In this document: positions 1 through 52,052 of the stretch, one piece after another
How the letters are laid out: every line of letters begins with the position of its first letter
Numbering within the stretch: position 1 is the stretch's first letter
Source: Microthyrium microscopicum
Taxonomy: Eukaryota
Length of the DNA stretch: 64,000 nt
Direction: 5' to 3'
Assembly: GCA_010405405.1 (NCBI GenBank)
Contig: MU004242.1
Coordinates: 35,751-99,750 of the forward strand
The notes under the pieces: generated by a model
Databases searched by the model: none
What the model was told of the DNA's origin: nothing
What the model saw: the letters and a program-made list of their open reading frames with translations, nothing else
Program-made: the position numbers and the translations under genes

Positions 1-2162
1 AGTTTACGTTTATTTATAAAAAAAAGTAAATAAGAACTCGTACTAAGCTAAGGTCTATATAATAATAAAGTTATTAAGTTAACTATAAATAAACTAACTT
101 TAGCTACTCTTAATAGTAAGTATAACTTAGATTCCTAGCTAAATTATTAAAATAGTACTAGTAAGTAAAGTATAATAAGTAATAAGCTTTAGAACTATTA
201 CTATAAAGTATATCTAGAAGAGGTACTACCTAAGTTCCTAACTATAGTAATTAATATCTTAAAGGTACTAACTATATTTAAGCATAACTAATTTTATAGA
301 AATATAAGTTTATTCTTATATCTTCTTAAATATAGTATATATAGAATTTAGCTAACTTTAAAAACTACCTAAATATAATACTACGTTAGTTAGTATAGAA
401 TTATTATATCTAAATAGTTAAAGGTATTATTACTAAATATTTAGACTAAGTAAAATATATACTAATTAGTACTATTTAACTCTATATTCTTAAGATTACC
501 TAAGACTAAGAAATTAGACGTATAGAAGTTTGCTAAGTAGCTAAGAAAAGATAGTAACTTTACTAAATTATATAAGTATAGTAAAAATAGAGAGAGTAGA
601 CTTTACGTAAGTTTATATTTTTAAATAAGACTAAATTATAACTATATATTAATAATACTTTTAGGAATATATATTATTTATTAGTAAAATAATCTTCTTT
701 TTTATTAATAACTTATTATTTTATTTATATATTAGTTATAAGCATAAAACCCTTATACTTAACTAAAGTAGGAAATATTCTAGAAACTACTAGGCTATAA
801 AGACTATAAAATTACTATTTTTAAGTAAACTTATTACGTATATCTATATACTTATTAAGCTACATATAAAAACTATTACCTAAAAAGTTAATAATTTTTA
901 GTATAACCTACCTACATATTAAGGTAATTTAGGTTATTAAATAAATAATATAATACTAACTAGTAANNNNNNNNNNCTTAAATAATAGAACTTATAACTA
1001 CCTTATTTAAAATAAAAAATAAGCTTACTTATTTAAAAAACTATTAAAGATCTTATATTATATAAAACTAGGGTATAATATAAAGAGTAATAGAAGCTAA
1101 TATTAGACGTATATACTTCTAACTATAATAATATTAATAAGCTTTATAAAGTATATTCTTTAAAAAACTAGTAATAATCTTATTAATATTACTATTTAGG
1201 TAAAACCCTAGCCTATATAGAAAGATAATTATAATTTACTTACTTAAGAAGATAATAAGAACTAGGACTCCTTTAAGCTATTATAATATTTAGGACGTAA
1301 GTAAAGTAGTTCTAAAGCTAAGTTTAATAAGTAATATAAATATAAAAGATATACTTTATAGCTTAAGGAAGTAATATTATATAGTAAGTTCTTAGTTAAT
1401 AATAAGTATAAAGTAAATAATAAGTAAAATAATCCTAATTATATAGACCTAATAAGTAAGTCTTATATATTTAAGTAAATATATAGGCTCTAATTACTAA
1501 TAAATTATATAAATAGAACCTAGTAATAAAGACTAGCTAGAGAAGATATATATTTAATTTACTAAACTAGGATAGATAAAAACTAAGCTACTAAACCTTA
1601 GAGGCCTTTTAATTCCTTAGGATATTATAAATACTACTAATAATAAGAAAGATTTAAATTATGCCCTATTATTCTATCTTATAAGTAAGGACTTAAGCTA
1701 AGAGGAGGAGGCATAGATTATAAATAATAGTAAGAAGGGTATAGTATTATAGAACTTAATCTTAATACGCCTATAATAAGGTAGTCTATAAAGTTAAGAT
1801 CTAATACTATAACGTAGTAAAGTATTTAATCCTAATAGGAATAAGTAAGGGCTTCTAATCCTTCTAAATAATCCTAGATAATTCTAGACAATTCTAGGTA
1901 TTTAGGTAATTATTCTAGTAAGGCTAGTTTCTAGAGTAGCTTTATATATAGTAATTAGAGCTATCTACTATATTATACCTATATTAGTATCTAGAATATT
2001 ATAAATATAGTAAATATAAGAAATACGATAGATATTTTAGATATTAAAGTTATTAAAGATATTCTTAATATTTTAAATATTAAAGATATTAAAGATATTA
2101 GAGATATTATAGATATTATAAATATTATAGATATTTAATATATTATAAATATTATAAATATA
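1..2162 (+). mobile_element. RIP-degraded transposon relic, possibly Ty1/copia-like retrotransposon pol region
   Basis: Extremely AT-rich, TpA-rich, no ORFs. Around 1200-1300 the + strand reads roughly KTLAYIER...RTP, loosely like the copia post-integrase 'TA.Y..NR...TP.E' segment. Class assignment is weak. Confidence 0.4.
2030..2162. repeat. Degenerate ~9-bp minisatellite (AGATATTAT-like) running into an assembly gap
   Basis: Repeated agatattat/aaatattat/agatattaa units immediately before the N run. Confidence 0.7.
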
Positions 2163-2996
2163 NNNNNNNNNNNNNNNNNNNNNNNNNNNNNNNNNNNNNN
2201 NNNNNNNNNNNNNNNNNNNNNNNNNNNNNNNNNNNNNNNNNNNNNNNNNNNNNNNNNNNNNNNNNNNNNNNNNNNNNNNNNNNNNNNNNNNNNNNNNNNN
2301 NNNNNNNNNNNNNNNNNNNNNNNNNNNNNNNNNNNNNNNNNNNNNNNNNNNNNNNNNNNNNNNNNNNNNNNNNNNNNNNNNNNNNNNNNNNNNNNNNNNN
2401 NNNNNNNNNNNNNNNNNNNNNNNNNNNNNNNNNNNNNNNNNNNNNNNNNNNNNNNNNNNNNNNNNNNNNNNNNNNNNNNNNNNNNNNNNNNNNNNNNNNN
2501 NNNNNNNNNNNNNNNNNNNNNNNNNNNNNNNNNNNNNNNNNNNNNNNNNNNNNNNNNNNNNNNNNNNNNNNNNNNNNNNNNNNNNNNNNNNNNNNNNNNN
2601 NNNNNNNNNNNNNNNNNNNNNNNNNNNNNNNNNNNNNNNNNNNNNNNNNNNNNNNNNNNNNNNNNNNNNNNNNNNNNNNNNNNNNNNNNNNNNNNNNNNN
2701 NNNNNNNNNNNNNNNNNNNNNNNNNNNNNNNNNNNNNNNNNNNNNNNNNNNNNNNNNNNNNNNNNNNNNNNNNNNNNNNNNNNNNNNNNNNNNNNNNNNN
2801 NNNNNNNNNNNNNNNNNNNNNNNNNNNNNNNNNNNNNNNNNNNNNNNNNNNNNNNNNNNNNNNNNNNNNNNNNNNNNNNNNNNNNNNNNNNNNNNNNNNN
2901 NNNNNNNNNNNNNNNNNNNNNNNNNNNNNNNNNNNNNNNNNNNNNNNNNNNNNNNNNNNNNNNNNNNNNNNNNNNNNNNNNNNNNNNNNNNNNNNN
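2163..2996. other. Assembly gap (N run); a second short gap lies at 967-976
   Basis: Runs of n in the sequence. Confidence 0.98.
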
Positions 2997-4405
2997 NTAT
3001 CTTATTTAAAGAATATCCTTTATTAGCTTTATAGAAGTACTTTAATAGTTTATCTTATTTTATTAATTTAAACGCTATAAGTAGTTTTAGTTTTTATTTC
3101 TATTTAATATATCTTAAATTAGTAAATTTATTTTAATTATTCTATATATTTTAAACGAATTAGATGTTAAGTTAAGTACTTAGATATAGGACTACGTATT
3201 ATAGTAATAAGTAGTTATAGTGTTATTAGATAACTTAAATTAATGATAATTTTTTTACGATGTACTAATATCTAATAGTTATAAGAAGTATATTAAATAT
3301 AAAGGTAGAAATAATAATTTAATCTTATTTAGCTTATAAAATAGTACAAACTAGTAGATAAGATAGCTCTTATATTTATTAATTATTAGAAGCTACTAGT
3401 AAGCCTTCTTCTATACTTAATCCTTTAACTAGTATTACTTTAAAAGATATTAAAAATGCTATATCTAGATAAATTCTAGGTAGTTATTTAAATAACTACT
3501 ATCTAATACTACTATAGTAAAGTTAGTACTCTAAATTTAGTAGTTTTAAAGCTATTAACTTACTAATTATAATATCTCCTAATATAAGCCTATTAAACTA
3601 AGACTTTAAGATAATGTAGCTTTTAATAATAAGAAGAGGCATAATAGTTCTATTACTAGCGGAATAGGCCTCTACTAATATTAAATTCTCTCTATTACTA
3701 AGCAATTTAATAAAATTATAATAGTTACTAAAGAACTTATAATTATTAGGAATAACTACTACTAGTATTTAGCCTCTTCCTATACTAATTTAAACGCCTA
3801 TTTTATCTATATTCTACTAATCTTTAGTCTAAATATTATATTTATTAATTATTTCTTTATAATCCTAATAAAACCTAGTAATAGTATCTCTATTTATAGC
3901 TTGCTTACAAGTAGCTTTAATAGTAAATTAAAATTATAAAGTAAAAAATAAGCGCTTTATCTAACGTTAAGCCTATTTTAAGCTAACTTAAAGTTAATTT
4001 TAGTAAGGAATTATATTAAAATTAAGGATGTCTCGTTATAGAATCTCGTTAGTAGTATTATATATAAGTTTAACTTAAATAGGAACCTTAATCTTTATTA
4101 TAAAGTTAAGATATTACTTTAGGGTGCTTCCTTACGCTTTAGATAGCTTTTAGTTAGTTAATTTACGTAAAGAATACAATCTAGTAAGCTTATTATATTA
4201 TTAGTAAAGTTATTTAGGTAGAATTAAAGAGAATTTCTTAGTAAGGGCCTTTTAAGTAGTCTTAAGCTATTTAGCTTTAAATTATATAGCTTTTTTAATA
4301 GTCTTCTCTTTGTCTATATATAGTATATAGTTCTACTTCTTTTACTAAGTTTTTAAAGGTATATTAGTAGTAGTAGAAATAATTATTAAAGTAATAAGTT
4401 ATTAA
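2997..4405 (-). mobile_element. RIP-degraded Fot1/pogo (Tc1-mariner superfamily) transposase relic, DDE-domain portion
   Basis: Minus-strand reading at ~3815-3360 gives NIDKIG...SNRENLILVEAYSASNRTIMPLLIIK...LLIINKYKSY. This matches the Fot1-type motifs NMDETG / NRE..T.VE.ISADG...PL.IFKG / LLI.DGH.SH after reversing G>A and C>T changes. Confidence 0.75.
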
Positions 4406-7400
4406 GGCTGTTGCTAGCAAGCGCTAGCATTTTTGCTGCTTGGCGCCAGAATATTTACTACTTAGCGCTAGAGCTATACTAGATTTATAATTTTATGGCG
4501 CTCTAGTCTAGAATAGGTAAGGCGTCATACCCTAACCCTAAGGTCTAGCCTAATTTAGTAATTCTTTTATAAAATCTATTTACTAGCGTTAAATACCTAA
4601 CTTTACTTCATTATATTATTTTAAGTCTTTAAGTCTTTAAGTCCCTACTACTATATCTTTAACTACTTACTATTATAATTCTACTAACAAACTATAGATT
4701 ATAAACCAATCCAAAAATATCCTGTAAATATCTACTTTAATACCTAGTAAGATGCACAAGAATTAATTTATAATTATACGCAGATATATAGCTACAGCAT
4801 AAAACGCAAATTAAAATCACCTTCTAATATTACTAACGCTAAAGTACGAAATATTTATATAAAATATAATAAAGAGGGAGTCTTTATATCGCAATCTTAA
4901 GGAATTTAAATAGTTAAGACTATAAAAGATAGTTATCCCTTTAAAATTACAATCCGCAAGACTCTAAATTAACTTATATAACCTTATTTCGTATATTAAA
5001 AGCCATAGGAATTAATTATTAAAAACGATTATATATATCCGCTAATTAATGCTTCTTTAATTACTACTTATTACTAGCACGATATTAATATTAATAACCT
5101 ACGTAAAGAGATTAATTCTCTATATAAATCTAATACTAAGCTAAAATAGATTCTCTCCAAAATTAAGGACAAATTCCTTGACGTCAATATTAAGATAAAG
5201 GATATCTACAACGTAAATTAGGCTAATTAAACTAAATAATTAGCAGGCTATACACTATTAGAAGCGCTTCTTAATAAGCTATAACAATATAATGAATTCG
5301 TCTTATTGTTTCATCTTAACTCTAAGAATCGTTTAAAAAGCCTCTTCATTACTACAAAAGCTTAGATTACTCTTTATTAGGCTCATCTAGATGTCCTATT
5401 ATTTAATACAATATACTAAACTAATCGTTACAAAATGCTACTCCTTTACATCGCTGCGTTGAATTCTATACATAAATACTTCTCTATAGCATTTTGCTTC
5501 ATAATAGGTAAAGATAAAGCGAAATATTAATAGGCATTGGAAACATTTAACAAGTTATTACGAGATAGACAGAATGTAAAGCTTCTAAACGTCGTTCTTA
5601 CTAATAGCTATCAAGCGCTAAAGAATATGCTTTAAACAACTATTCTTATTTAGCAACTAATTTATTAATACTACTATAATAAGAATATTAAATTAAAGGT
5701 TAAGGAGATATAGCAAACTATAGATTATATACTAAGTTATAACGCTCAAGATAGTGCTTAGAAGCTTTAGGATTTTGCAATTTTAATATAGCAATAGGTT
5801 AGCTAAATTCAGCTCTTCTAATAGTTATTTTACTAACAAATTTGTAAGTAATTGATGCCTTTACTAAGCAAGCTCTAGATACCGCCTAGAATACCCTTAA
5901 AAGCTAATTTACTAACGTTAAGGGCCTTTAATTTGTTAAATATCTTAAGGATATTTAGATAATATCTAAATAAGAACTATGCTATGCTTTTACGCATCTT
6001 ATTAAATATTTTAATGCTATAATAATATCGCTATTAGAAGGACTTCACAAAGCTCTAAAGGAATGGATTACTTTAAATAACGACTTACTTAAAGTAGTTA
6101 ATTCGATGCTAAGATATATTCGTAATATAGTTAAGAAGTTGCGTAAACGGGCAAAGAAGGATACTAATCATAAGAATCCTATCTTAAAAGGCAAGAATCT
6201 TCTTATTCTTTACCTCTCATTTATTTATTATGTTAGCTCATACGCGTTAAAAATGGTTATAACGAAATATTAAAAGTATAAAAGTGAGGAATCTAGTAAA
6301 ACACTACTAACGAAATGCTTAAATATCTTTAGTAAGATCTTTAGATTACCCTATAGCTATACTATTAAAGAACACCTATTTTATAACGACAAATAGTAAC
6401 TCTAGAAGCAAGATATTAATACGTATTAGTACTATGATTGAATTAAGTCTAGAGTCATAGAAGAAGAATATCTTAAAGATCTAGAGCTTTTTATTAGTCT
6501 AGATCTACCTCCGCTAGCTCTACTAGTATAGATTTTACCTCTACAACGTGTGTTAAGTAGTAGACGTCCTTTAGGATCTTAGCCTTATTCTTAGCCTAAT
6601 TAACATCTAACAGCTCCTTTAGGTTAAATCCTCTCTATAAATAAGATTCCTATGCTAGCATCTTACGATATTACTAATGCTACAGCATTAGCACAATCTA
6701 TAGAGTAGAAGACATTATAAATATCTTGGGCTAAATAGTAAGTAATTAATGCTCAATAACGGACTTAGGATGTTGTAGAAGGACGTCAATAAATAGAGGA
6801 TATTATACGTAAATTAGAGGCTATAATAGCTTGACATAATGAGACGCGCGCCAAATAGCGTAAACGCCGTAGAGACTGCCAACGCTATAATAATTAGCTT
6901 AAAGAACTTAATTCTAACGAAGAACAAGAAGCTCGCGATGCTCTAGAACTGTTATAGCAAAAATATCTCAATCTTTAAGAATACAATAGCTAGATGCTAC
7001 TATAAGAACTCAATTAGTTCAATGTTATACCTATTAAAGATCTCTCTACTAAAAAGACTACTACCAATATGCCTAAAGTTATTAAACTCTCCTTAAATTC
7101 TAGTAGCTCTAAAGAAGAGGAACTAGCACTAAAACGTTGCTATACAGCCTATATAGGTCCTCTATCTAATAGAGCCCTTTAAGAGAAGGTTAATCTATAA
7201 GAAGATAAGATTAAGAAATTACGATAGATATTAGTTACTATAGAAGTAGTATCTTTAGCTTTAGTAGCTACTCTGCGTTCAATTCCTACACCTATAGTTA
7301 CTATTACTACTAAAATTACTTTGCAATCTAGCGTTACTACTACTTTAACTACTATAATACTAGTTCCTCCTTAAAAGAAGCGAGGAAGACCTATTGGTTC

Positions 7401-7852
7401 TAAGAACAAGGTACGATCAGAGCCAAAAGACGTGAAGAAGCTATAGAAACAACCTCCCTTTAGACCTGCGGGTTAGAGAACATAAACATACTAAAAACAA
7501 GGTTAAGATACACTAAAAACGGAGTCAAGATAGGACAAGGAATAGCTACGAGAGGGCACAAAAACGATAATAGGATATAGAAGAGATAGATCTCTTTAAA
7601 TGTATATTTTGGGCGTAAAATCGCTATCGTAAGAGTTAATCTACTAAACTAGTCCCATAGGCTTTATCTATAGTAAAAGCTTTAATATTTTGTACTTCTT
7701 TTAAACCTACTTTTTAACTAGTAGACTAATACTAAGATTTCTATATTTATTTCCTATTTAGGCATAGCCTAGAGCGCCATATTATTTTGGCGCTAAGTAG
7801 CAAAAATGCTAGCGCCGTGTAGCAAAAGTACTAGTGCTTACTAGTAATAGCT
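4406..7852 (+). mobile_element. Full-length RIP-inactivated Mutator (MULE) DNA transposon with TIRs and 9-bp TSD
   Basis: The left end ggctgttgctagcaagcgctagcatttttgc... aligns over ~65 bp with the reverse complement of the right end, mostly by transition mismatches. The identical 9-mer AGTTATTAA flanks both ends (4397-4405, 7853-7861). An internal MULE transposase relic is present. Confidence 0.92.
4750..7480 (+). pseudogene. MULE transposase pseudogene with C-terminal AT-hook (boundaries approximate)
   Basis: ~5390-5450 reads DVLLFNTIY*TNRYKMLLLYI (MULE D.TY.TNRY.MPL motif). ~5590-5625 reads VVLTNSYQALKN (..TD...AL.NA). ~6030-6060 reads SLLEGLHKALK. 7375-7410 reads KKRGRPIGSKNK. Many TAA/TAG stops, consistent with RIP. 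Confidence 0.85.
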
Positions 7853-7861
7853 AGTTATTAA

Positions 7862-8330
7862 AAGAGATAGAATTATTATATTATAGGTAGTAGAACTAGG
7901 ATTACTTTATTATATAAAGTTAAATCTACTAAGAGAGTCTAAGCGTTAGATTTCTATTTATTATAACTACTTTACTAAAAGTAGATATTATTTTCTAAAA
8001 ATCTAGTAGTACGTTTAAATATATATAAATATACTTTAGTAAAAATATAAAAACTATCTAATAGTTAGTTACTAAGTAGCTATAAGGAACGTATAGAAAT
8101 TAAGAAATACTAACCTAATTCTAGATTAAACTAATAATACTTAAATATTCTTACTATATTTAGTTTTAGAGATATAATCTTAAAAATAATATAGGATTTA
8201 TAGCCTATACTATAGAATATAATTCCTCTTTTAGAAATTGAAAATATTAAGTTTTAGTTATACGGCATATATATAAAGTAAAGGATACTAAAATTATCCT
8301 CGTTGAGCTATACTCCTCGTTGAGCTGTCC
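7862..8330 (-). mobile_element. Continuation (5' portion and terminal region) of the interrupted Fot1/pogo element
   Basis: AT-rich RIP sequence resumes after the MULE TSD. It ends in two copies of tcctcgttgagct (8297-8309, 8314-8326) 17 bp apart, resembling the internal direct repeats of Fot1/Pot2-type TIRs. GC content rises abruptly afterwards. Confidence 0.55.
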
Positions 8331-32600: not shown

Positions 32601-33689
32601 ACCAACGCGATCAAATTTACTCGACTTGAAAAGATACGCAATGTTGTGGTGAGCATGGGCTTATCGCTTCAGCGACCGTCAAAAAGTACGTGTGGACATA
32701 TTGTGTATGGTCATATACACAATGAGACTGAAGCTCAATCGTTACGGGCAGACTGGGAGCTGGGAGAAACAGTATGTTCTCATAAATCGTTCATTGGTAT
32801 TCAGCTGCTGACATCGTGGAAGATATATGTGCATTTCATGGTTCATGATACTGGTCGAGGTTTGACTGAAGCTGAAAAAGATTTACTCTTTGCCCGCTTT
32901 TCACAAGCCTCTCCTCGCACTCATATCAATTATGGTATTTACTCCTCTCACTTGACATTTGTAACTATCTAATCTATTCTAGGTGGTTCCGGTCTTGGGC
33001 TTTTCATTTCCCGGCGGCTTACTGAAATGCATGGTGGAGCAATTGGCTTCGCATCCAACACGGGTGCAGGAAGTACTTTCTCTTTTTATATGAAAGCTCG
33101 CAAACTCGACTCCAACTTCGCTCAACCAGGAGATTCCAGAGCAAGTCCAAACTCTGCTATCGGCCCAACCACAAATATACCACCTCTTCCCGATCGCACT
33201 GCCAGCAGTCATGCAGTTCAAACTCTCAGCCAGTCCCCGTCCGATACAACCACCGAGAAACCCAGAGACGCTAAAGATTTCTATGTTCTGGTCGTGGAAG
33301 ATAATCTCGTCAATCAACGAGTCCTTGCCAAGCAGTTACGAAATCTTGGAATGAAGGTTGCAGTAGCCAACCACGGTGCTGAAGCTTTAGATTACTTGCG
33401 TACCACCAAGTTCTGTTCGCCAGATGGTGAACCGCTTTCTTTGATCTTGATGGATTGGGAGATGCCAGTTATGGATGGTTTAACCTGCGTTCGCAACATC
33501 CGACAGTGGAAGCAGAGCGGAGCTATGCAAGGACATGTGCCAGTTATAGCAGTGACTGCAAATGTTAGATTAGAACAGGTAAAGATTGCCATCGAAGCCG
33601 GCATGGATGATGTTGTATCCAAGCCGTTTAGGATACCGGAACTATTCATTCGTATGCAGAAAGTGATGGATCAGGTGGAAAATCAATAA
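29695..33689 (+). CDS. Hybrid histidine kinase (PAS/GAF-like sensor region, HisKA, HATPase_c, REC), fungal group XI-like; ~10 introns
   Basis: DWANSPLGSMHTWS sensor motif; H-box FIDTTS/HEMRNPLSAI split by introns at ~31990-32083; NLITNAIKFT; DTGRGL; GGSGLGLFISRRLTEMHGG; REC VEDNLVNQ...LMDWEMPVMDG...KPF. Confidence 0.93.
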
Positions 33690-34876: not shown

Positions 34877-36558
34877 TTCGGTTGATCTGTCGAATCGATC
34901 TTACTAGTTTGACTGTGTAGCTAAAGTACGCGGAACTGGCGGAAGTTGAGTTAAATAGTGTGGAAAGATGCGAGGACGAAGATGAAAAATTAGACGTCAG
35001 ACTACTTAGCTCAAGTTTGCGAATGGGACGAGAATCATTACATTTATACCTAAAGTTCACTACGGTACTTACAGAGTGACTCAAGGGTCGATTTTCAAGA
35101 TCTGTGAACCGTAGTTGAGGGAGAGAACATCAATTAGCGTACCAGACTGGTAGAGACCATGCTGACCAACATCTCCAGCGACCATAAACAGTATTACCGG
35201 TAGCCACGACGTTTCCAAGATCGTCAAAATCCGAAAGTAACAGATCCATGGATAGCAGGAATCGTATCACTGAGAGTCAGAACTAGTACCGGAGTCATAA
35301 CGTGAATCCTTGTACTCAAAATGAGATTGTCCAGTTGCAATTTGGTTCTAGCAAGAGTAAGACCATCGTTCCTATGAGCAATTGTCGCATAGCGAACAGA
35401 TGCGTGGTAGGCAAGTCGTGGAATTAGGCTGCGAGCAGTGCACAGATGAACCCAAGGTCCATTGCCGGGCCATCTGACAGAATGATGGCGTTGCATGAGC
35501 AGCAATGACTAGGACTGGCTAGACTCGTACCAATGCACTTCATAAGCATAAGGCTTAACACGCATTGAGGCCATGTGCTGTGGTGGGTGCGAGAGTGCTA
35601 TAATAAAGATTTTGCGTCACAATGGAGCACGACGATATCTGATGCTTGAATATCCGAAAAGCCGATCTCTTGGGTCTATCGGACCAATCGGGGAATATAT
35701 ATGCACGTGCACATGTTCCGCCTCCCGAAAGTCTTGGAACATGAACTCCAAATGTTGGGTCAATCATTGATCATTCTAACCTCGTTGCCATTTTCTGGAT
35801 CTTGAAATTGTTTTTCAATTCCCACTTTTCCGCTACCGTCGCTGGATCGAAATCGGGTCCGTGATACAGTCCTTCGAGAGCTCTAGCCATCATATACTCC
35901 TTGAGGTTTTCACGCGCAACATTTGATTTTGGAAACAACTATTCGCCCCACACGCTAAAAAGCTTATTATTTATCTTACCTTTGTTTGGTACTCGAAGTT
36001 GATCCCTGATCCACGCGCAACATTAACTACATAGATTGAGTGTGCCTGCCAAGGCTGCTGTACCCGCCTACCTACGTTACATAGCTTGACGTGGCTGTGA
36101 TCGCGGGCTGTGGCTGTATAAAACTACGAGAGTACCGGTACCGACCTACAGTTGCACCCAAGTACACGGGACACCGGTAGTTTACAAAGTACGTACCCAG
36201 GTCCTAGGAGCCGTAAAAGTGGAAGAAGTCAACACATTGGCAAGCCAGGGTCCAATTTCAAGTCTTGTATCGCACCTACTTGTCGATGACGGACATGGTA
36301 AACACGCGCAAAGGATCTTGATACGATAACACTGTCTGATCTGCCACGATTTGTCTTGCTCGCAGAGGTTGGCACTTGACCGTTGCTGGTCAATGGTCAT
36401 GAGCCACTACCCTCCTTGTGCCGGATACATCTGATACACGAGTATCTTCACAACTTTGAAGTCGCAACGTACTACACCCGCCGTAAACCTAATTCCACCG
36501 CCGCCTACTATGCACCTATATCGCCTTTTCATCTTTACCTACTAGTAGTACTATATCC

Positions 36559-39500
36559 ATGGACACACCCATCACATCGCTTGGGGAACTCGAGCATCTT
36601 AGCATCGAAGAAGTACTCGACCAGGACAGCCGACCTAGCTTCATCCTCGATCTCGATCCAGACCAAGACAGGGTCAGCCACCTTCTCAGTCCCATTTTTT
36701 GCAATTTGGCCCTTCGCGTACACTATCAACTCTACGATGCGGTCACCAGCGGAGAATTACCCACACCTCTTTCTAGATCTGAAAAGCCATCGTATCAGGA
36801 CTTCAGAGCTTGGGCCATTAGTGTAACTACACACGACGATTCGAAAGATGTGTTTCCACTTTCGTTCCTGTTTGGGAATCTTCTCTGGACGGGTTTCACT
36901 GTTCGACGCCGATGGCGAATCATTAGCGGCAACATATTATGGAATGAAAAAGGCCCTCTAGCGAACGTGTCGTCCAATGCAACTAGCGAAATACCCAAGG
37001 GCATCTCTGGTGCTACTAGAGCCTCTGCGAAGATCGATCTTATTGGTTCTACTTCACGAAAAGCGATAAAGATATCCACAGATGACAGGCCAAATCTCGT
37101 ACCAGTCCAAAAAATCCCTTCCTCCAAGCCTTATTACTTCCCAAAGTCAGCCCGCACAAGCTCCGATGATACCGGAAACTCTTCTCACAGCAGAGGATCA
37201 CTGACACTTGCGGCTCCTGATAAAGCGTGCGCCGATTGGACTGCAAAATCACCCAAGGGCGTAATATCAGATCATATTGCATTAGCTCGCCTAGTAAACT
37301 GGAAAGACACTCCTTTGGGTCCAATGGAGAAATGGTCGCCCGAGTTTCGCCAGGTTGCAAACCTTCTCATGTCCAATCCTCACCCGGCCGCTCTGTTTTG
37401 GGGGAGTGACTTGACTATGCTTTACAACGCAGCCTACGCTGATGAAGTAGCTGGCAACAAGCATCCAGAGCTGATGGGTACCGGATTTTCAGGGCCATTT
37501 TCTGAATTATGGGACTCCATTGCTCCTGTTTTTGCGGAATGCGCTAAGACTGGTGTCTCTATCCGACGAGAAAACGATTACCTGCCTATCAAACGGCGTG
37601 GATTCCTTGAGGAGACTTTCTTTTCTTGGTCGTGGACCCCTTTGTACGGCGGCACTTCGCAAATACTAGGCTTCTATAATGCCCCGTTTGACGTGTCAGA
37701 TCAAGTCCGAAATCGCCGGGGAATGGAAACAGTAAGCAAACTCGGGGGCACGGTGTCTAGAGCCACCTCAGTCAAGCAATTCTGGAAACTGGTACTGGAG
37801 GGCCTGGAAGAAAGCAACTTTGATGTCCCAATGGCGCTCCTCTATTCTGTGAGCGATACTGAAGACCCAGATCATGAATCAATATCCTCAGGCAGCACAA
37901 TCTCTTTGAAATCATGCAACTTTGAGGGATCTATTGGCATACCGGAAGGACACCCTGCGACACCTCTCCAACTGGATCTCAAACGCAGTCGAGAGGGCTT
38001 CGTACCCGCTTTTCGCGAAGCAATGCGTACCAGGGAGCCCACTTTACTACACATCAAAGATGGATCCCTTCCTGAAGAGCTACTGGAAGGGATTGAGTGG
38101 CGAGGGTTTCCAGACCCATGTCAAGATGCAATCATTTTCCCAGTACGACCAACGAATGGGGAAACGGTACTTGCCTTTCTCGTAATAGGTATGAATCCAA
38201 GGCGTCCATACGACGAAACGTACAAGTCTTTCATAAGTTTACTCAATCGACAATTGGCCACCTCTTTAGCTTCCACCATACTTCATGAAGAAGAAATTCG
38301 GCGAAGCACCGCTGCTGCGATAGAGAAGGAAAGTCTCTCGAAGCAACTCGCACTTCAGACTGATAGACTGCGGCGAATGACAGCACTCTCTCCTCTGGGA
38401 ATGTTTTTCCTCAATCCAGAAGGCAAATTTGTCGAAGCCAACGATCGATTCTTTGAAATGACAGGTCTGGCGAGGGACGAAATGCTCACTGCTTCGTGGG
38501 CAGACTGCATTATGGATAGTAGCAATGAGAAAATGGATGAAGGTTGGCTACAAATGCTGCACGAACACAAATCCTGGTCTAGTGAGCTTCAACTCAAAAA
38601 GACAAGGGACGCCGCAACCAACTTTGATCTTGATGGCGAGATAATTGATTCTTGGGTGCTGTTTACAACCCAACTCGAATTTGGGTCTGGGGATTCGCTG
38701 AAGTAAGTCTTTCCTTTTGAGCCGACTCGAGCACAACCAGTAGATAAAATAACTGGCGTGCTCCCACCGACTTCGATTGCTCCCTCAAAACACGCTCAAG
38801 GATCGAATGCGTTCAGTGCTATGAAAGGCTTCTAGAGCAGCACAATTCATCGAATGCAATAGAAGTAATACTACCTTTTATTTAGTAGCGTTTGTGGGAG
38901 CCACTGATGTTGATGGGGGCATGCCGGTTATTATGTTGATCAGTTGAAGCACTAATAGAAAAAAATTCACCTCGGGCGAGCCCATGGATTTCAACTTATA
39001 GCGGTCGCCTCACTAACCGGTTCAGATCAATTCTAGGCTCGATAACAGATATTTCTCACCTCAAGTGGGTCGAAGGCCTTCAAAGCCGACGACTCTGCGA
39101 GGCTGAAGAAAGGAGACGCCAGCAGACTGAATTCATCGATATCACGTCGCATGAGATGCGAAATCCTCTCAGCGCTATACTACAGTGTGCGGACGATATT
39201 TCAGCTAGTCTGAGCAGCTATCGTTCTACAGACGCTGCGCTCAATGCCTCCATTGTGGAAAGCTGTTTGGATTCTGCGAGTACCATCAAACTCTGCGTAA
39301 ACCACCAAAAGATGATCGTCGATGACATTCTTACAACATCAAAACTCGACTCAAACCTCCTGGAACTAACTCCTAGTGCCACTCAGCCCACTGAAATTGC
39401 CAGTCTCGTTGTTCGCATGTTTCAATCTGAACTTCAAGCCAAGAAGATCCAAGTATCCCTTGATCTGGACTCCTCCCTCCAGCAGCTCTCGGTTGGCTGG

Positions 39501-40493
39501 GTCATGTTAGATCCCAGCCGAGTCCTCCAAATTCTTATCAATCTCATGACAAATGCAATCAAATTCACCGCCGGCTCGAAAAAGAAAGTCATTACGGTAT
39601 TTGTCGCAGCGTCGTCAGAATCACCCGCCACGATTAGTAAACCGAAACTCCAGTACATCCCCGTACGAGCAACAAAGGCAGATACGCCTATTGGAGATGA
39701 CTGGGGTTCAGGTGATATTGTCTTTCTACGATTTAAGGTGAAAGATACCGGAGTTGGTCTTACATCCGACGAAAAACAAGTGCTTTTTGAGCGGTTCAAA
39801 CAGGCTTCTCCTCGCACTCATGCACAGTATGGCGGCAGTGGACTTGGTCTCTTTATTTCTCGCCAGCTTGCCGAGCTGCACGGAGGTCAAATCGGTGTTG
39901 CCTCAGAATCAGGTATAGGGAGCACGTTTGGCTTCTTTATCAGCACCCGACGTGCCAGCCGACCACCTTCTTTCCCAGACGATGTGGACGCTGCTAAGAG
40001 CAGCTATGATCCCGTCAGCATCCAGTCTGCCTCAGAAACAAAGTCCGTGAATCCATTAGCTGTTGAACCAGCGCCCATATTAGACGTCGCTTCGCTTCAT
40101 ATACTGGTCGTTGAAGACAACCAGATCAACCAAAAAGTGCTCGTCAAACAGCTGCGCAAATTCGGTTGTACTGTTCACGCAGCCAACGATGGCCTTGAAG
40201 CTTTGGAATTTCTTGAAAAGACGGTCTATCGAGTACCAAACGGCGTTGAGCTTAGCGTCGTGCTCATGGATCTCGAAATGCCAAACATGGGAGGTCTCGA
40301 TTGTGTTCGTGAGATTCGAAAGATGGAAGACGCAGGCGAACTCAGTGAACATGTGCCAGTTATTGCTGTGACGGCCAATGTAAGAGACGAACAAATCGCC
40401 GTTGCAAAGGACGCCGGCATGGATGACGTTGTTGGAAAGCCCTTTCAAATTAAAGAAATAATTGCAAAGTTTGGAGTGGTGTTGAGAGCTTGA
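36559..40493 (+). CDS. Hybrid histidine kinase (PAS/GAF-like sensor region, HisKA, HATPase_c, REC), fungal group XI-like; single intron 38703-39025
   Basis: NWKDTPLGPMEKWS; PAS segment SPLGMFFLNPEGKFVEANDRF; FIDITSHEMRNPLSAI; NLMTNAIKFT; DTGVGL; YGGSGLGLFISRQLAELHGG; REC VEDNQINQ...LMDLEMP...KPF. Confidence 0.95.
38731..38950. mobile_element. MITE-like element, copy 2, inside the histidine kinase intron
   Basis: Left ataaaataactggcgtgctcccaccgacttcgattgctccc versus right gggagccactgatgttgatgggggcatgccggttattatgt form an inverted repeat. The internal sequence is also similar to 25972-26165. Confidence 0.7.
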
Positions 40494-48536: not shown

Positions 48537-49598
48537 AGACACTGTCAACGATTCAGTATTTGGACAGTAGTGGACATGCGTTATCGCACTTGATGGCATA
48601 TAGCATCATGTTGCCAATCTGTTGAATACTCGTTGCAGTTCCACTTGGGCATTTTGATTGCAGTAAAGGTTCAGTTAGTTCTCAAGTTCTCTAAGCCCAA
48701 ATGTTAAGTAACTACTCCAGGTTTTTAGCTTTAGTTTCTCCACACCATCCTAAAGTTTATTCCTAGGAACCGTTAATATCAAGCCAATGATCAATTCAAG
48801 CTATGATAGTGCACCGTGCGATTGAGAAGAGTATAGATTAACTTTTGACTCATTGCGAGTACCGAACAGTAATCGTTCATGACTTTCAACGTCGTCTGAT
48901 GTTGGCCTTCTATGTCACTTTTAAGCCATTTCGCCTATAGTGACTAGTCGGGTCTACAATCAGATCGACGAATGATTAGCGATGAATCAAAAGTCCCGAC
49001 TCCCGACGCAAGCAAGGAGAGCATCTGAGTGGAGGGCCGTAGAATATCGAGACTAAGGCTGAGAAAAGGCAAGTACGGAAGGCACGCCACTTTTCAGGGG
49101 CAACCAACCACAGCACCTCCATCAACCTTTTATCCAACCATACGCTCACAACACCAACCCGACTCACAATACACTCTTTACTAGTTAAAGCCACAATCCG
49201 ATGTCCCTTGTTATACATATCTAATCCGGACTGGTCGCTGGAACTTTACGCCTGTGAGCCTGTGACGGCTCTGCCGCTAAAGCGGCAACCTCAGCGGATG
49301 AGCGCCTTCAACGGCATTTGGCTTACTTGTAGGAACTCAGGTTCGCTTTTGGCTCCCAGCGCCGCCGTTCTTGAATCGCGAGCTCGTGCGATGCGACTAA
49401 AAGCAAGACGCGTCCGGATTCCTCGAATTCCCCGTGAAATCAGTCCTAGATCCTTCAAAGTCCGGTACACCATCTCCAAAGTTCCAAACTCACAGCTCAT
49501 GGTGTCAACCGTCTCTGTCCCACCACCCTCCCGGTTCCTGTGAAACCCATCTAACGGCCGTCTATCCATCCCCTGCATCAGAGGTCATAAATATCGCA

Positions 49599-52052
49599 AT
49601 GGTTTCCTCTGTGGCCAATTCAGGAACAATCACAGCTTCCAAAATGAAGATTCTCTTTCTCTGCACTGCTCACAACTCACTTTCCCAGCGCCTGTATTTG
49701 GCCTTGTCGACTTTTCACCATGTTACCATCGAATATGCGCTTTCCGAAGATGTTATGATTTCCGCGACCAAACTGGCAAATCCGGATCTGATCATATGTC
49801 CGTTTTTGACCGCGCGCGTTCCGAAAGAAGTTTATGAGAATTACATGACTTTGATTATCCATCCAGGACCACCAGGTGATGCGGGACCAAGTTCTCTGGA
49901 TTGGGTTCTTCTCGGAGACAATGGAACTGTGGATAACGCCGGAGAATTACTCAACACACTTTCTAGCGACGTTTGTCACCCAGGTAAGAATCCACTTGTT
50001 TTTATCCTCCGAAAGCCACCATCTTGATTTCGCGATGGACCCTCTTTAGCATAACTTGGCAGCTAGCGACTAGTTTTTGAGATTTTCTTCTGAAGAATGA
50101 TATCAAAAGTTTCCTGAATTTGAGGTTTGACGCGTTATATGAATGATCATCGTGCACTACCAATATTCTTGTACTAACCAATCTCAGGTCGAACGCACTG
50201 GGGAATTACTGTTCTTCAGGCAATAGAGCAGTTTGATGCAGGACCAGTGTGGGCATTCGAGCAATTCTCAATTAATATCGATCAACAGACACTGAGCAAA
50301 TCGGAGCTATATAGAGGGGCAGTGTCGCGAGCAGCAATTTCCGCAACGTTGGCTGCTGTCCGAAGAATCCAAGATATCGCATTTTCAACCCAAAAGCCTC
50401 TCACTGGACAGAGTGAGGTTGAAGGAGGTTGGTCAGCGATTGAGCTACAAATCTCCCCGGATATCAGACCTCATCCAGAGTACAAGACACTCTCCGTAGC
50501 AACCCAGGAGCCATTTCAAGGCGGCCCCACGTTTCATCGACCTCTTTTGAAGGCGGCGCAACGTGAATTCAATGTTGCTAAGCATACTGCTCAACAAATT
50601 TCCCGTCGGATTCGTTGTGGCGACTCTCAACCAGGATCACTGAGTAAAGTATTTGGCCCGGACCTTTATGTTTACGGAGGAATTGTGGAGGATTGTCCCG
50701 AGGGTCCCAATCCAGGTGCTTGTCCTGGTGCATTTCCTGGAACGGTTGTTGCAACAAGAAATTCTGCAGTTTGTATCGCAACCTGTGATGGCCGTGGAGT
50801 ATGGATCACGCACGTCCGGAGACCAAAGAAAGCCAAAGACGCAGCACTATGGCCCAAAGTCCCAGCTGTATCCGGATTAGTAGCACTTGGAGTTTTGACA
50901 GCTTCTCACGTCCAAGATTTGCAATGGGACCTTCCGAACAACTGGGCAAAATCTCCTTTCCAAACATTCCAGGAGGTTTGGATCGATTTCGTCAGCTATG
51001 CACCATCCAAACAGGCTGCATACCTCTACTTTGATTTTTATAATGGCGCTATGGCTACGGATCAATGCTCCTATCTTATCCAAGCTATGGATTATATCAT
51101 TGCGTCATCTACCTCAGATAATCCTGTTTGCGCCGTGGTTCTCATGGGGGGCCAATATTTCAGCAATGGAATTGCTCTCAATGTTATCGAAGCCAGCTCT
51201 TCGCCAGCAACGGAATCGTGGCTCAACATCAATCGCATAGATGATGTTGTACACTACTTGTTGCATGAATTTCGCAGCAGAAATATCGTTACTATCGCTG
51301 GCGTAAGAGGGAACGCAGCAGCTGGTGGAGTTGCACTCGCCGCAGCCTGTGACATTGTCGTTGCTGGCTCCGACGTTGTCCTTAATCCAGCTTATCGAGG
51401 CATCGGTCTCTATGGATCCGAATATCACTCCCTCTCCTACTCTGGCCGCTGCGGCCCCCAGAAAGCCTACCAGATACTTCGCTCAATGACACCACTCAGC
51501 CCTTTCCAAGCGCGCTCCATCGGCCTAGTCGACCACGTCTTCCCTGGCAACGGCAGTCTTCTTGACAAGCGCATACGAAACCACGTAGCAGTCATCGTAC
51601 GATCTGGCAAACTAGGCCGCATCCCATGGACAGCCAAGCAAGAACTCTCTCCCGCCGTACTAGCACAAGCACGAGCCAAAGAGCTCAGCGAAATGGCGCA
51701 AGACTTCTACAGCCCGCGATCAGTGCGCTACCACAGCCGAAGATTCAACTTTGTGCGTAAGGTCAAACCAAAGCAAACACCACTACGCTTCGCCACACAT
51801 CGACGATTCGGCGCAGATCATCTGGACGAAGAAGAGCATAATGATTTTGATGACGTTGAGCATTATCAACGACAATTCGAGCTTCAGCTTCAACATCATT
51901 TCCACATCACGTCTGGTGCCACCACTCCGTTATCAAGTACGCGAGATGCGTCAAGTATCCGCGATACCTCAAGTACTAGAGATGATTTGCATTCACCTCG
52001 AGGTAATGGCGAAACTATGTTCTCTTGCTACTATGCTCCTGTGAAGGCATAG
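49599..52052 (+). CDS. hoxX: HypX/HoxX-like formyltransferase-enoyl-CoA hydratase fusion (749 aa; intron 49984-50187)
   Basis: MKILFLCTAHNSLSQRL, PDLIICPFL, IIHPGPPGDAGPSSLDW, WGITVLQA.EQFDAGPVWA, KSELYR and IRCGDSQPG (formyltransferase half). FDFYNGAMATDQC, FSNGIALNVIEA, ESWLNINRIDD, GNAAAGGVALAAACD and LNPAY..IGLYGSEY (crotonase half). Spliced length 2250 nt is in frame. Confidence 0.93.

Follow-up and report, generated by a model that had tools for sequence, protein, structure and literature searches.

The stretch of 64,000 nts that we analysed, hereafter the window, comes from the fungus Microthyrium microscopicum (contig MU004242.1, positions 35,751 to 99,750). On its plus strand, between positions 49599 and 52052 of the window, lies a spliced gene whose product is by sequence an intact homologue of HypX/HoxX. 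In the available portions of two sources, HypX is treated solely as an accessory factor for bacterial O2-tolerant [NiFe] hydrogenases (PMC6802093, PMC12134894). The fungal gene is carried by two plus-strand frames, 49401..50027 and 50178..52052, joined through a 204-nt spliceosomal intron (49984..50187) with a GTAAGA donor from 49984, a TACTAAC branch site at 50173-50179 and a CAG acceptor, the AG being at 50186-50187. Counted from the ATG at 49599, the coding length is 385 + 1865 nt, which makes 749 codons and a stop. Exon 1 from the conserved start (49644..49983) encodes the first part of a formyltransferase-like domain, and exon 2 (50188..52052, stop codon 52050-52052) the remainder of this domain, a linker, a crotonase-like domain and a tail.

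We examined the splice with a contig of 2149 letters from X1, the single public run with this locus (its kind, 'RNA?', is guessed, and the contig was used but not the depth). The contig spans positions 49300-51613 but for exactly 204 letters, whose ends are GT..AG. The spliced form thus exists, a statement about its occurrence and not about expression level. The joint agrees with the 49984 donor but not with the model deposited as P0001 (731 aa, named 'ClpP/crotonase'), which is 100% identical to the window gene across exon 2. The donor of P0001 lies 9 nt upstream (window 49975-49983), so that H-P-G, present in homologues, is missing at its junction. A second in-frame ATG at 49644 (M-K-I-L-F-L-C) is the start of all five homologues compared and of the consensus of 27 fungal sequences, and because homologues begin there the likely product is 734 aa long. 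The 15 residues upstream (49599..49643) had no counterpart in these five homologues or in the consensus; the upstream in-frame ATG and its 15 codons, which the X1 contig covers, might represent an N-terminal extension or 5′ untranslated region. Hence, of the spliced 749-aa gene proposed in the initial annotation, the splice stood while the start probably lies further in.

The gene had been described as a formyltransferase domain fused to a crotonase domain, and full-length alignment with HypX of Aquifex aeolicus (PDB 6J0P, 'Hydrogenase regulation HoxX') together with the Pfam domains of exon 2 bears this out. In exon 2, Pfam recognised Formyl_trans_C (PF02911, E 6e-07) at 50556..50834, residues 123-215 of the exon-2 translation, and the enoyl-CoA (coenzyme A) hydratase/crotonase domain ECH_1 (PF00378, E 1.9e-16) at 51105..51575, residues 306-462, which holds the Tyr and Glu discussed below. 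Exon 2 aligned to Aquifex HypX with E 4.3e-69, and exon 1 from 49644 with E 3.3e-26, residues 1-90 facing HypX residues 1-91. The structure matches of exon 2 that followed 6j0p were plain enoyl-CoA hydratases at E 1e-10 or weaker. The four motifs named from the sequence were all found in the translation: IIHPGPPGD at 49854-49880, FDAGPVW at 50232-50252, FYNGAM at 51036-51053 and NPAY..LYGSEY at 51384-51425.

We then compared folds. An AlphaFold2 model built with 27 fungal sequences as input reached a mean predicted local distance difference test score (pLDDT) of 76.6 and a predicted template modelling (pTM) score of 0.73. Foldseek matched it to 6j0p and its variants with E 1.7e-44, a target-normalised template modelling (TM) score of 0.82-0.85 and 32% identity, the remaining matches covering one domain each, either formyltransferases or crotonases. 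Pfam, the 6j0p alignments and Foldseek thus agree on the full-length two-domain HypX/HoxX architecture in a single chain. A simpler assignment was rejected. An ordinary enoyl-CoA hydratase/isomerase, with a stand-alone crotonase domain of ~250-300 aa, does not fit: the best NCBIfam hydratase models scored 23-53 bits against cut-offs of 250-869, and the crotonase part is one of two domains. NCBIfam has no HypX model and gave only these sub-threshold hydratase matches.

In the available part of the Aquifex HypX study (Muraki et al. 2019, PMC6802093), a triad His74/Asp80/Asp109 is proposed for formyl transfer from N10-formyl-tetrahydrofolate (N10-formyl-THF) to CoA, and Tyr416 with Glu426 for decarbonylation of formyl-CoA; mutants of R. 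eutropha at the corresponding Tyr and Glu have a HypX-minus phenotype. As the 6j0p chain bears a 20-residue tag, the numbering of the paper equals chain position minus 20, and the row of an Aquifex sp. protein confirms the mapping, since it has the residues of the paper at the corresponding columns. By alignment and codon coordinates, the equivalents in the window gene are His (49860-49862) and Asp (49878-49880) in exon 1 and Tyr (51393-51395) and Glu (51420-51422) in exon 2. The third triad member is an Asp at 50235-50237, placed by the exon-2 alignment to 6j0p and confirmed by the Aquifex sp. row. All five catalytic residues, whose alignment to Aquifex HypX had been suggested as a check, are therefore conserved.

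This conservation extends beyond the window gene. Among 146 fungal-like sequences of at least 500 aa, counting for each column those that cover it, the five residues were H in 133/133, D in 133/133, D in 142/142, Y in 144/144 and E in 144/144. They were likewise kept in 27 of the 27 named rows of a comparison table comprising one Microthyrium, six Basidiomycota, 16 other eukaryotes, three bacteria and P0157, a protein whose nearest named matches are bacterial (37-42% identity). In the same paper, as far as its text is available, R9, Q15, R131 and R542 contact the CoA diphosphate and S194, Q195 and N306 the 3′-phosphate (PMC6802093). Five of these seven CoA-tethering contacts (Q15, R131, S194, Q195 and N306) are identical in the window gene, whereas R542 is replaced by Lys and R9 by Ala. 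Most non-fungal relatives likewise have Ala or Ser in place of R9.

The fungal proteins carry additional segments. An insert of ~27 residues after L-D-W, encoded at 49914..49983 and continuing over the intron into the first exon-2 codons, was present in all six fungal rows aligned and in none of nine others (P0157, four other eukaryotes and four bacterial or unassigned rows). The inter-domain linker of fungi is also longer than in bacterial and other eukaryotic members. Concerning their starts, four of the six fungal rows begin directly at the conserved start, and the basidiomycetes Phakopsora and Kwoniella have short leaders. Pfam detected no extra domain in 14 long fungal-like proteins (775-1184 aa).

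The C-terminal tail showed a particular pattern. After the last conserved H-R-R, fungal tails have a median length of 101 residues, with a range of 57-477. That of the window protein (51825..52049) contains an acidic D-E-E-E patch (51825-51836) and F-S-C-Y-Y (52020-52034), the Cys being at 52026-52028. D657-E660, C724 and Y726 are invariant in the 27 fungal sequences. The strict motif F-x-C-Y-Y was found in 111 of 130 full tails; among the 19 others, 14 showed a C-[YH]-Y variant and five nothing visible in the 40 residues shown. The motif cysteine is the sole Cys of the tail in 71 of the 130. F-x-C-Y-Y was absent from 25 non-fungal rows of the sister set and from 15 putative bacterial rows, with the exception of a degenerate form in P0157. 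In the AlphaFold2 model, residues 689-731 have a pLDDT of ~32: the tail is predicted to be disordered and its motif is not placed on the enzyme. Such a cysteine-bearing tail probably regulates the enzyme or docks it to a partner. Many fungal tails carry a second motif, T-P-P-E-S-P, a few residues past the cysteine motif, which resembles a proline-directed phosphorylation site (carriers include P0083, P0092, P0095, P0098, P0099, P0103, P0105, P0107, P0113, P0115, P0117 and P0119). The window protein terminates ahead of its position.

The initial annotation had considered the gene in one fungus and suggested a phylogeny to test for horizontal origin. Orthologues were found across Ascomycota and Basidiomycota, and relatives in a second eukaryotic clade. 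A word-indexed search returned 2473 proteins at E <=1e-5 among 8000 scored candidates. The best 120 of these had 52-100% identity, and the named ones among them were all Ascomycota (Dothideomycetes, Sordariomycetes and Orbiliomycetes); neither yeast nor vertebrate members were among these best 120 matches listed. Several of the matches listed are already named 'Hydrogenase maturation factor HoxX'. An exhaustive profile search of 1.84 billion cluster representatives gave 2016 proteins at E <=1e-3 and 269 at E <=1e-30. Basidiomycota were represented by Tilletia, Ceraceosorus, Testicularia, Kwoniella, Tremella and Phakopsora, and a neighbouring clade by Trichoplax, the rotifer Didymodactylos and the dinoflagellate Togula. 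With the Trichoplax protein as query, further members came from the corals Montipora and Oculina, Nematostella, Hydra, Branchiostoma (several paralogues, on scaffolds of chromosome scale), the tardigrade Hypsibius, the gnat Bradysia and three bivalves among animals, and the moss Ceratodon, the liverwort Calypogeia, Chara and the brown alga Ascophyllum among plants and algae. A profile scan of contigs with the fungal alignment matched one bacterial locus. The HypX-like gene is thus a family trait of Dikarya and beyond, not peculiar to Microthyrium microscopicum. Members are already labelled 'HoxX' or 'HoxX-like' in several databases. Our literature search, in which coverage of subscription journals was thin, found no paper discussing a eukaryotic HypX/HoxX, and the text of a 2025 review, as available, has no word beginning with 'eukaryot' or 'fung' (PMC12134894).

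The relationships within the family were examined with three trees, whose roots are not established. In a FastTree of 116 rows, the fungal-like sequences formed one clade (100), adjoining a 24-row set that includes Trichoplax, the rotifer and the dinoflagellate. A careful IQ-TREE run on 61 rows (32 named eukaryotes, 12 verified Pseudomonadota and 17 others; loci L046, L049 and L050 were excluded, their longest frame not being hypX) grouped 16 fungi at 100/100, with 10 Ascomycota as a sub-clade at 100/100, and placed all 32 named eukaryotes and three further rows on one side of a branch supported at 88/96. In a quick IQ-TREE run on 57 rows with 24 named or verified bacteria of at least seven phyla, again without L046, L049 and L050, fungi grouped at 100, other eukaryotes at 97 and 23 of the 24 bacteria at 92, whereas the joining of the two eukaryotic clades received only 38 by the SH-like approximate likelihood ratio test (SH-aLRT). 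The distribution in these trees indicates that the gene is old and has been vertically inherited within Dikarya. Fungi and other eukaryotes may or may not share a single acquisition, with 88/96 in one tree against 38 with broader bacterial sampling, and since tree roots are lacking no donor can be named. P0157 together with P0408 and P0409 forms a small lysine/asparagine-rich group from ~2-kb contigs, sister to the fungal clade (97-99 SH-aLRT).

Ratios of non-synonymous to synonymous substitution (dN/dS) were calculated by the Nei-Gojobori method for fungal orthologues from metagenome loci. Measurable dS was available for 23 listed pairs, of which 22 gave ratios of 0.04-0.15 and one close pair 0.36; as stop-to-stop frames were used, any non-coding sequence in them would raise the ratios, not lower them. 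The dS of the window gene itself was saturated against 15 of 15 partners. The fungal family is under purifying selection, far from the ratio near 1 that the initial annotation had named as grounds for giving up its reading.

Among non-fungal relatives, some proteins are fused to FolD (methylene-THF dehydrogenase/cyclohydrolase), the enzyme that makes N10-formyl-THF. The fusion was present in 10 of 24 long relatives scanned, including dinoflagellate and rotifer proteins, and the brown-alga protein is fused too. FolD mostly forms the C-terminal part, but the N-terminal one in P0251; the fused proteins are P0163, P0178, P0182, P0185, P0208, P0216, P0221, P0236, P0239, P0251, P0293 and P0334, the named carriers being Togula, Didymodactylos and Ascophyllum. 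These fusions lend indirect support to a link with the one-carbon/folate pool; of the purposes suggested in the initial annotation (signalling, host or competitor interference, one-carbon disposal), this is the only one to gain any. Other members, P0176, P0204, P0350 and P0307 (Trichoplax, Nematostella, Ceratodon and Branchiostoma, respectively), have N-terminal extensions ahead of the conserved start that may be organelle-targeting peptides.

We then turned to the genomic context. No other hyp gene had been noticed in the window, and Pfam scans agreed: no hyp or hydrogenase family was found in 32 stop-to-stop window frames (17 + 15), chosen from frames of at least 109 aa, with overlapping opposite-strand frames and frames over the run of N left out. 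As to the wider claim that the fungus has no hydrogenase, it holds for the window by these scans, while organism-wide it rests on a general statement, in the available part of PMC11216029, which names bacteria and archaea as the organisms that encode [NiFe] hydrogenases. Association with hypA-F or a [NiFe] hydrogenase was seen neither in the window nor at the fungal loci examined. To our knowledge, such hydrogenases are not known in the fungi, animals, plants and algae that carry the gene.

The gene is flanked by two unknown genes, and CPSF100 lies at 54.6-57.7 kb on the minus strand. Elsewhere in the window, Pfam identified a BBE-type oxidase using flavin adenine dinucleotide (FAD), a subtilase fragment, a lectin, a FAD-linked oxidase, a receiver/kinase fragment and a GGACT protein, and further genes encode a PAS hybrid histidine kinase (36.5-40.5 kb), a metallophosphoesterase, a WSC protein and a fungal rhodopsin-domain protein. 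Comparing 16 window-frame proteins with 35 related metagenome loci revealed no shared neighbour; the only matches were two weak receiver-domain ones to a bacterial locus (L001). All-against-all clustering of neighbours gave a sugar transporter as sole recurrent neighbour, in one close group (seven loci) and on either side of the gene. No conserved neighbour or hyp gene was thus common to the window and the fungal metagenome loci.

The same question put to bacteria gave another picture. Within 301 sampled Pseudomonadota genomes, hypX was present in 17; hypD was found in 16 of these 17, against 92 of the 301 overall, and in 13 of the 17 it lay ~1.1 kb from hypX on the same contig. In the sole hypX genome without a hypD match (G224), hypX stands at a contig end. 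The link between bacterial hypX and hydrogenase maturation is real in this sample, and no sign of it was seen at the fungal loci examined. A role of the fungal gene in hydrogenase maturation is not supported on present evidence. Two bacterial loci differ in detail. In L001 (a gammaproteobacterial metagenome-assembled genome, 1-10587), hypX lies beside chemotaxis genes (Hpt, CheW, MCP and receiver) with hypD on another contig. In L051 (G121:C1:532253-534064), the hypX match has in-frame stops (two TGA and one TAG) with hypD 1.1 kb off, and the gene may be broken.

Further features of the window were recorded. The PAS hybrid histidine kinase (HisKA, HATPase_c and receiver; 36493-40493, plus strand) is situated 9 kb upstream of the HypX-like gene, and a second kinase/receiver fragment occupies 32973-33689 (plus strand); nothing was found to link the kinase to the HypX-like gene, and this pairing is absent from the other fungal loci examined. 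Positions 1-8000 have a very low GC content (0.11-0.31 in 2-kb bins) and contain short repeats rich in A/T; this DNA may be repeat-rich or affected by repeat-induced point mutation. An assembly gap, a run of N, extends from ~2163 to ~3000.

From the conserved residues and the fold, with the FolD fusions as indirect support, retention of HypX chemistry is the most economical reading. In this scheme, CoA would be held in an internal cavity of the two-domain enzyme. The His/Asp/Asp triad of the N-terminal domain would shift the formyl group from N10-formyl-THF to the CoA thiol, and formyl-CoA would then swing across to the crotonase-like domain at the C-terminus; there Tyr and Glu would promote decarbonylation, freeing carbon monoxide (CO) and regenerating CoA and THF. 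On balance, and with moderate confidence, we favour a fungal enzyme that is an active formyl-THF-to-CoA formyltransferase and formyl-CoA decarbonylase, releasing CO and THF without a hydrogenase maturation system. Both reactions, their direction, the release of CO and any role of the tail are inferred by us from sequence and its comparison. In Dikarya the enzyme appears independent of [NiFe]-hydrogenase maturation, and it would either yield free CO or bring about a net loss of formyl from the folate pool. Possible purposes are the action of free CO on haem proteins, the removal of excess formyl with release of THF, or delivery of CO to an acceptor; elsewhere, formyl units are removed by 10-formyl-THF dehydrogenase or PurU-type deformylases. 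We put more weight on the chemistry, which we judge slightly favoured, than on any one of these purposes.

Several observations weigh against this chemistry or its independence from hydrogenases. Pfam detected nothing in exon 1, where Formyl_trans_N remained below threshold. The pLDDT of the model falls below 50 at residues 514-520, that is in the Tyr/Glu loop itself, and at 616-652. The position of THF-contacting Lys59 varies in fungi, and Tyr108 is replaced by Phe. The Tyr/Glu pair could equally activate water, leading to hydrolysis of formyl-CoA to formate; the conserved residues fit both decarbonylation and hydrolysis and so cannot separate the two. Also, we know of no downstream user of CO in fungi. 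Finally, the scan covered the window, and hyp genes could still lie elsewhere in the Microthyrium genome.

The second-ranked explanation, which we regard as unlikely though still of some weight, is that the chemistry ends at formyl-CoA or begins from it, either as interconversion with N10-formyl-THF, by which formyl-CoA would be salvaged, or as hydrolysis to formate, with little or no CO. Eukaryotes have sources of formyl-CoA in oxalyl-CoA decarboxylation and fatty-acid alpha-oxidation, and the conservation of both domains and of the CoA contacts is compatible with any formyl-CoA chemistry. A Tyr/Glu pair acting via a water molecule is moreover permitted in the available text on Aquifex HypX; the same text describes the CoA as constitutively bound, like a prosthetic group, which argues against turnover of free formyl-CoA (PMC6802093). 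The residues that tether the 3′-phosphate are kept in the window protein. Release of CO by bacterial HypX in vitro, reported in the available part of a review (PMC12134894), further speaks for decarbonylation.

We consider it quite improbable that the fungal enzyme supplies CO as a ligand to a putative carbonyl-metal cofactor or protein, as HypX does towards HypCD, with the tail cysteine serving in hand-over or docking. The confinement of F-x-C-Y-Y to the fungal clade, its near invariance there (strict or as C-[YH]-Y in all but a few tails), the strict conservation of C724 and Y726 and the frequent lack of any other tail Cys would suit such a role. However, we found no candidate acceptor and no conserved neighbour in the 35 metagenome loci, the tail, predicted as disordered, has no position on the enzyme in the model, and the non-fungal eukaryotic clade is devoid of the motif. 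Even less probable is a catalytically silent scaffold or regulator that keeps the HypX fold only: nothing specific speaks for it beyond a literature that gives no function in any eukaryote, and invariance of the five catalytic residues and of most CoA contacts over Ascomycota and Basidiomycota would be unexpected for a pseudo-enzyme. Lastly, although the closest characterised relatives are bacterial, bacterial contamination, recent horizontal arrival or a decaying pseudogene has a negligible chance, being refuted by the intron removed in the X1 contig, eukaryotic flanking genes (CPSF100, the WSC-domain protein and the fungal rhodopsin-domain protein), the 100/100 fungal clade with its Ascomycota sub-clade, the open frame and the low dN/dS of the family. 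The window thus holds a resident, probably transcribed fungal HypX orthologue; that the gene is resident had been argued from the intron in the initial annotation.

The analysis thus shows a full HypX-like enzyme with every proposed catalytic residue, conserved throughout Dikarya and also present in a second eukaryotic clade. If the chemistry is retained, eukaryotes would have an unrecognised pathway leading from folate-bound one-carbon units to carbon monoxide, with consequences for signalling by CO, for how formyl-THF levels are controlled and for the biological emission of CO by soil and litter. A broader proposal is more doubtful and is put forward tentatively: fungi and many animals, plants and algae would possess a haem-oxygenase-independent, folate-dependent CO synthase derived from a HypX-like ancestor, and the fungal tail would couple CO or formyl to an acceptor, for instance a haem sensor or carbonyl-metal site. 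Were this true, one-carbon metabolism would provide eukaryotes with a second enzymatic origin of CO.

Compared with HypX/HoxX of bacteria that oxidise H2 aerobically (Aquifex aeolicus, 6J0P; Cupriavidus necator; Rhizobium leguminosarum), the fungal protein has the same full-length two-domain architecture, the same triad and the same Tyr/Glu pair, and its identity (32%), target TM (0.82-0.85) and CoA contacts (five of seven identical) are those given above. Unlike bacterial HypX, the fungal gene has an intron, the ~27-residue insert and a longer linker, and no hyp context was found around it; fungal members also bear the disordered D-E-E-E/F-x-C-Y-Y tail and form a separate, long-stemmed clade. 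The 'HoxX-like' proteins of animals, plants and algae are eukaryotic like the fungal ones and keep the five catalytic residues in 16 of 16 named rows, but they are without the fungal inserts and the F-x-C-Y-Y tail; the four aligned carry N-terminal extensions and some members are fused to FolD.

Finally, the N-terminal hydrolase domain of ALDH1L1, or 10-formyl-THF dehydrogenase (FDH), adopts the same formyltransferase fold (Foldseek matches 1s3i, 2bw0 and 4qpd). According to the available part of PMC6802093, FDH and HypX share a pantetheine thiol as the carrier of formyl, which it takes from where folate binds to another active site. The second domain is an aldehyde dehydrogenase served by a carrier resembling acyl carrier protein in FDH, whereas it is a crotonase served by bound CoA in HypX. 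The predicted product is CO for a HypX-type enzyme, as against CO2 for FDH. The Ser of the FDH triad is an Asp in HypX (PMC6802093, in the same part).

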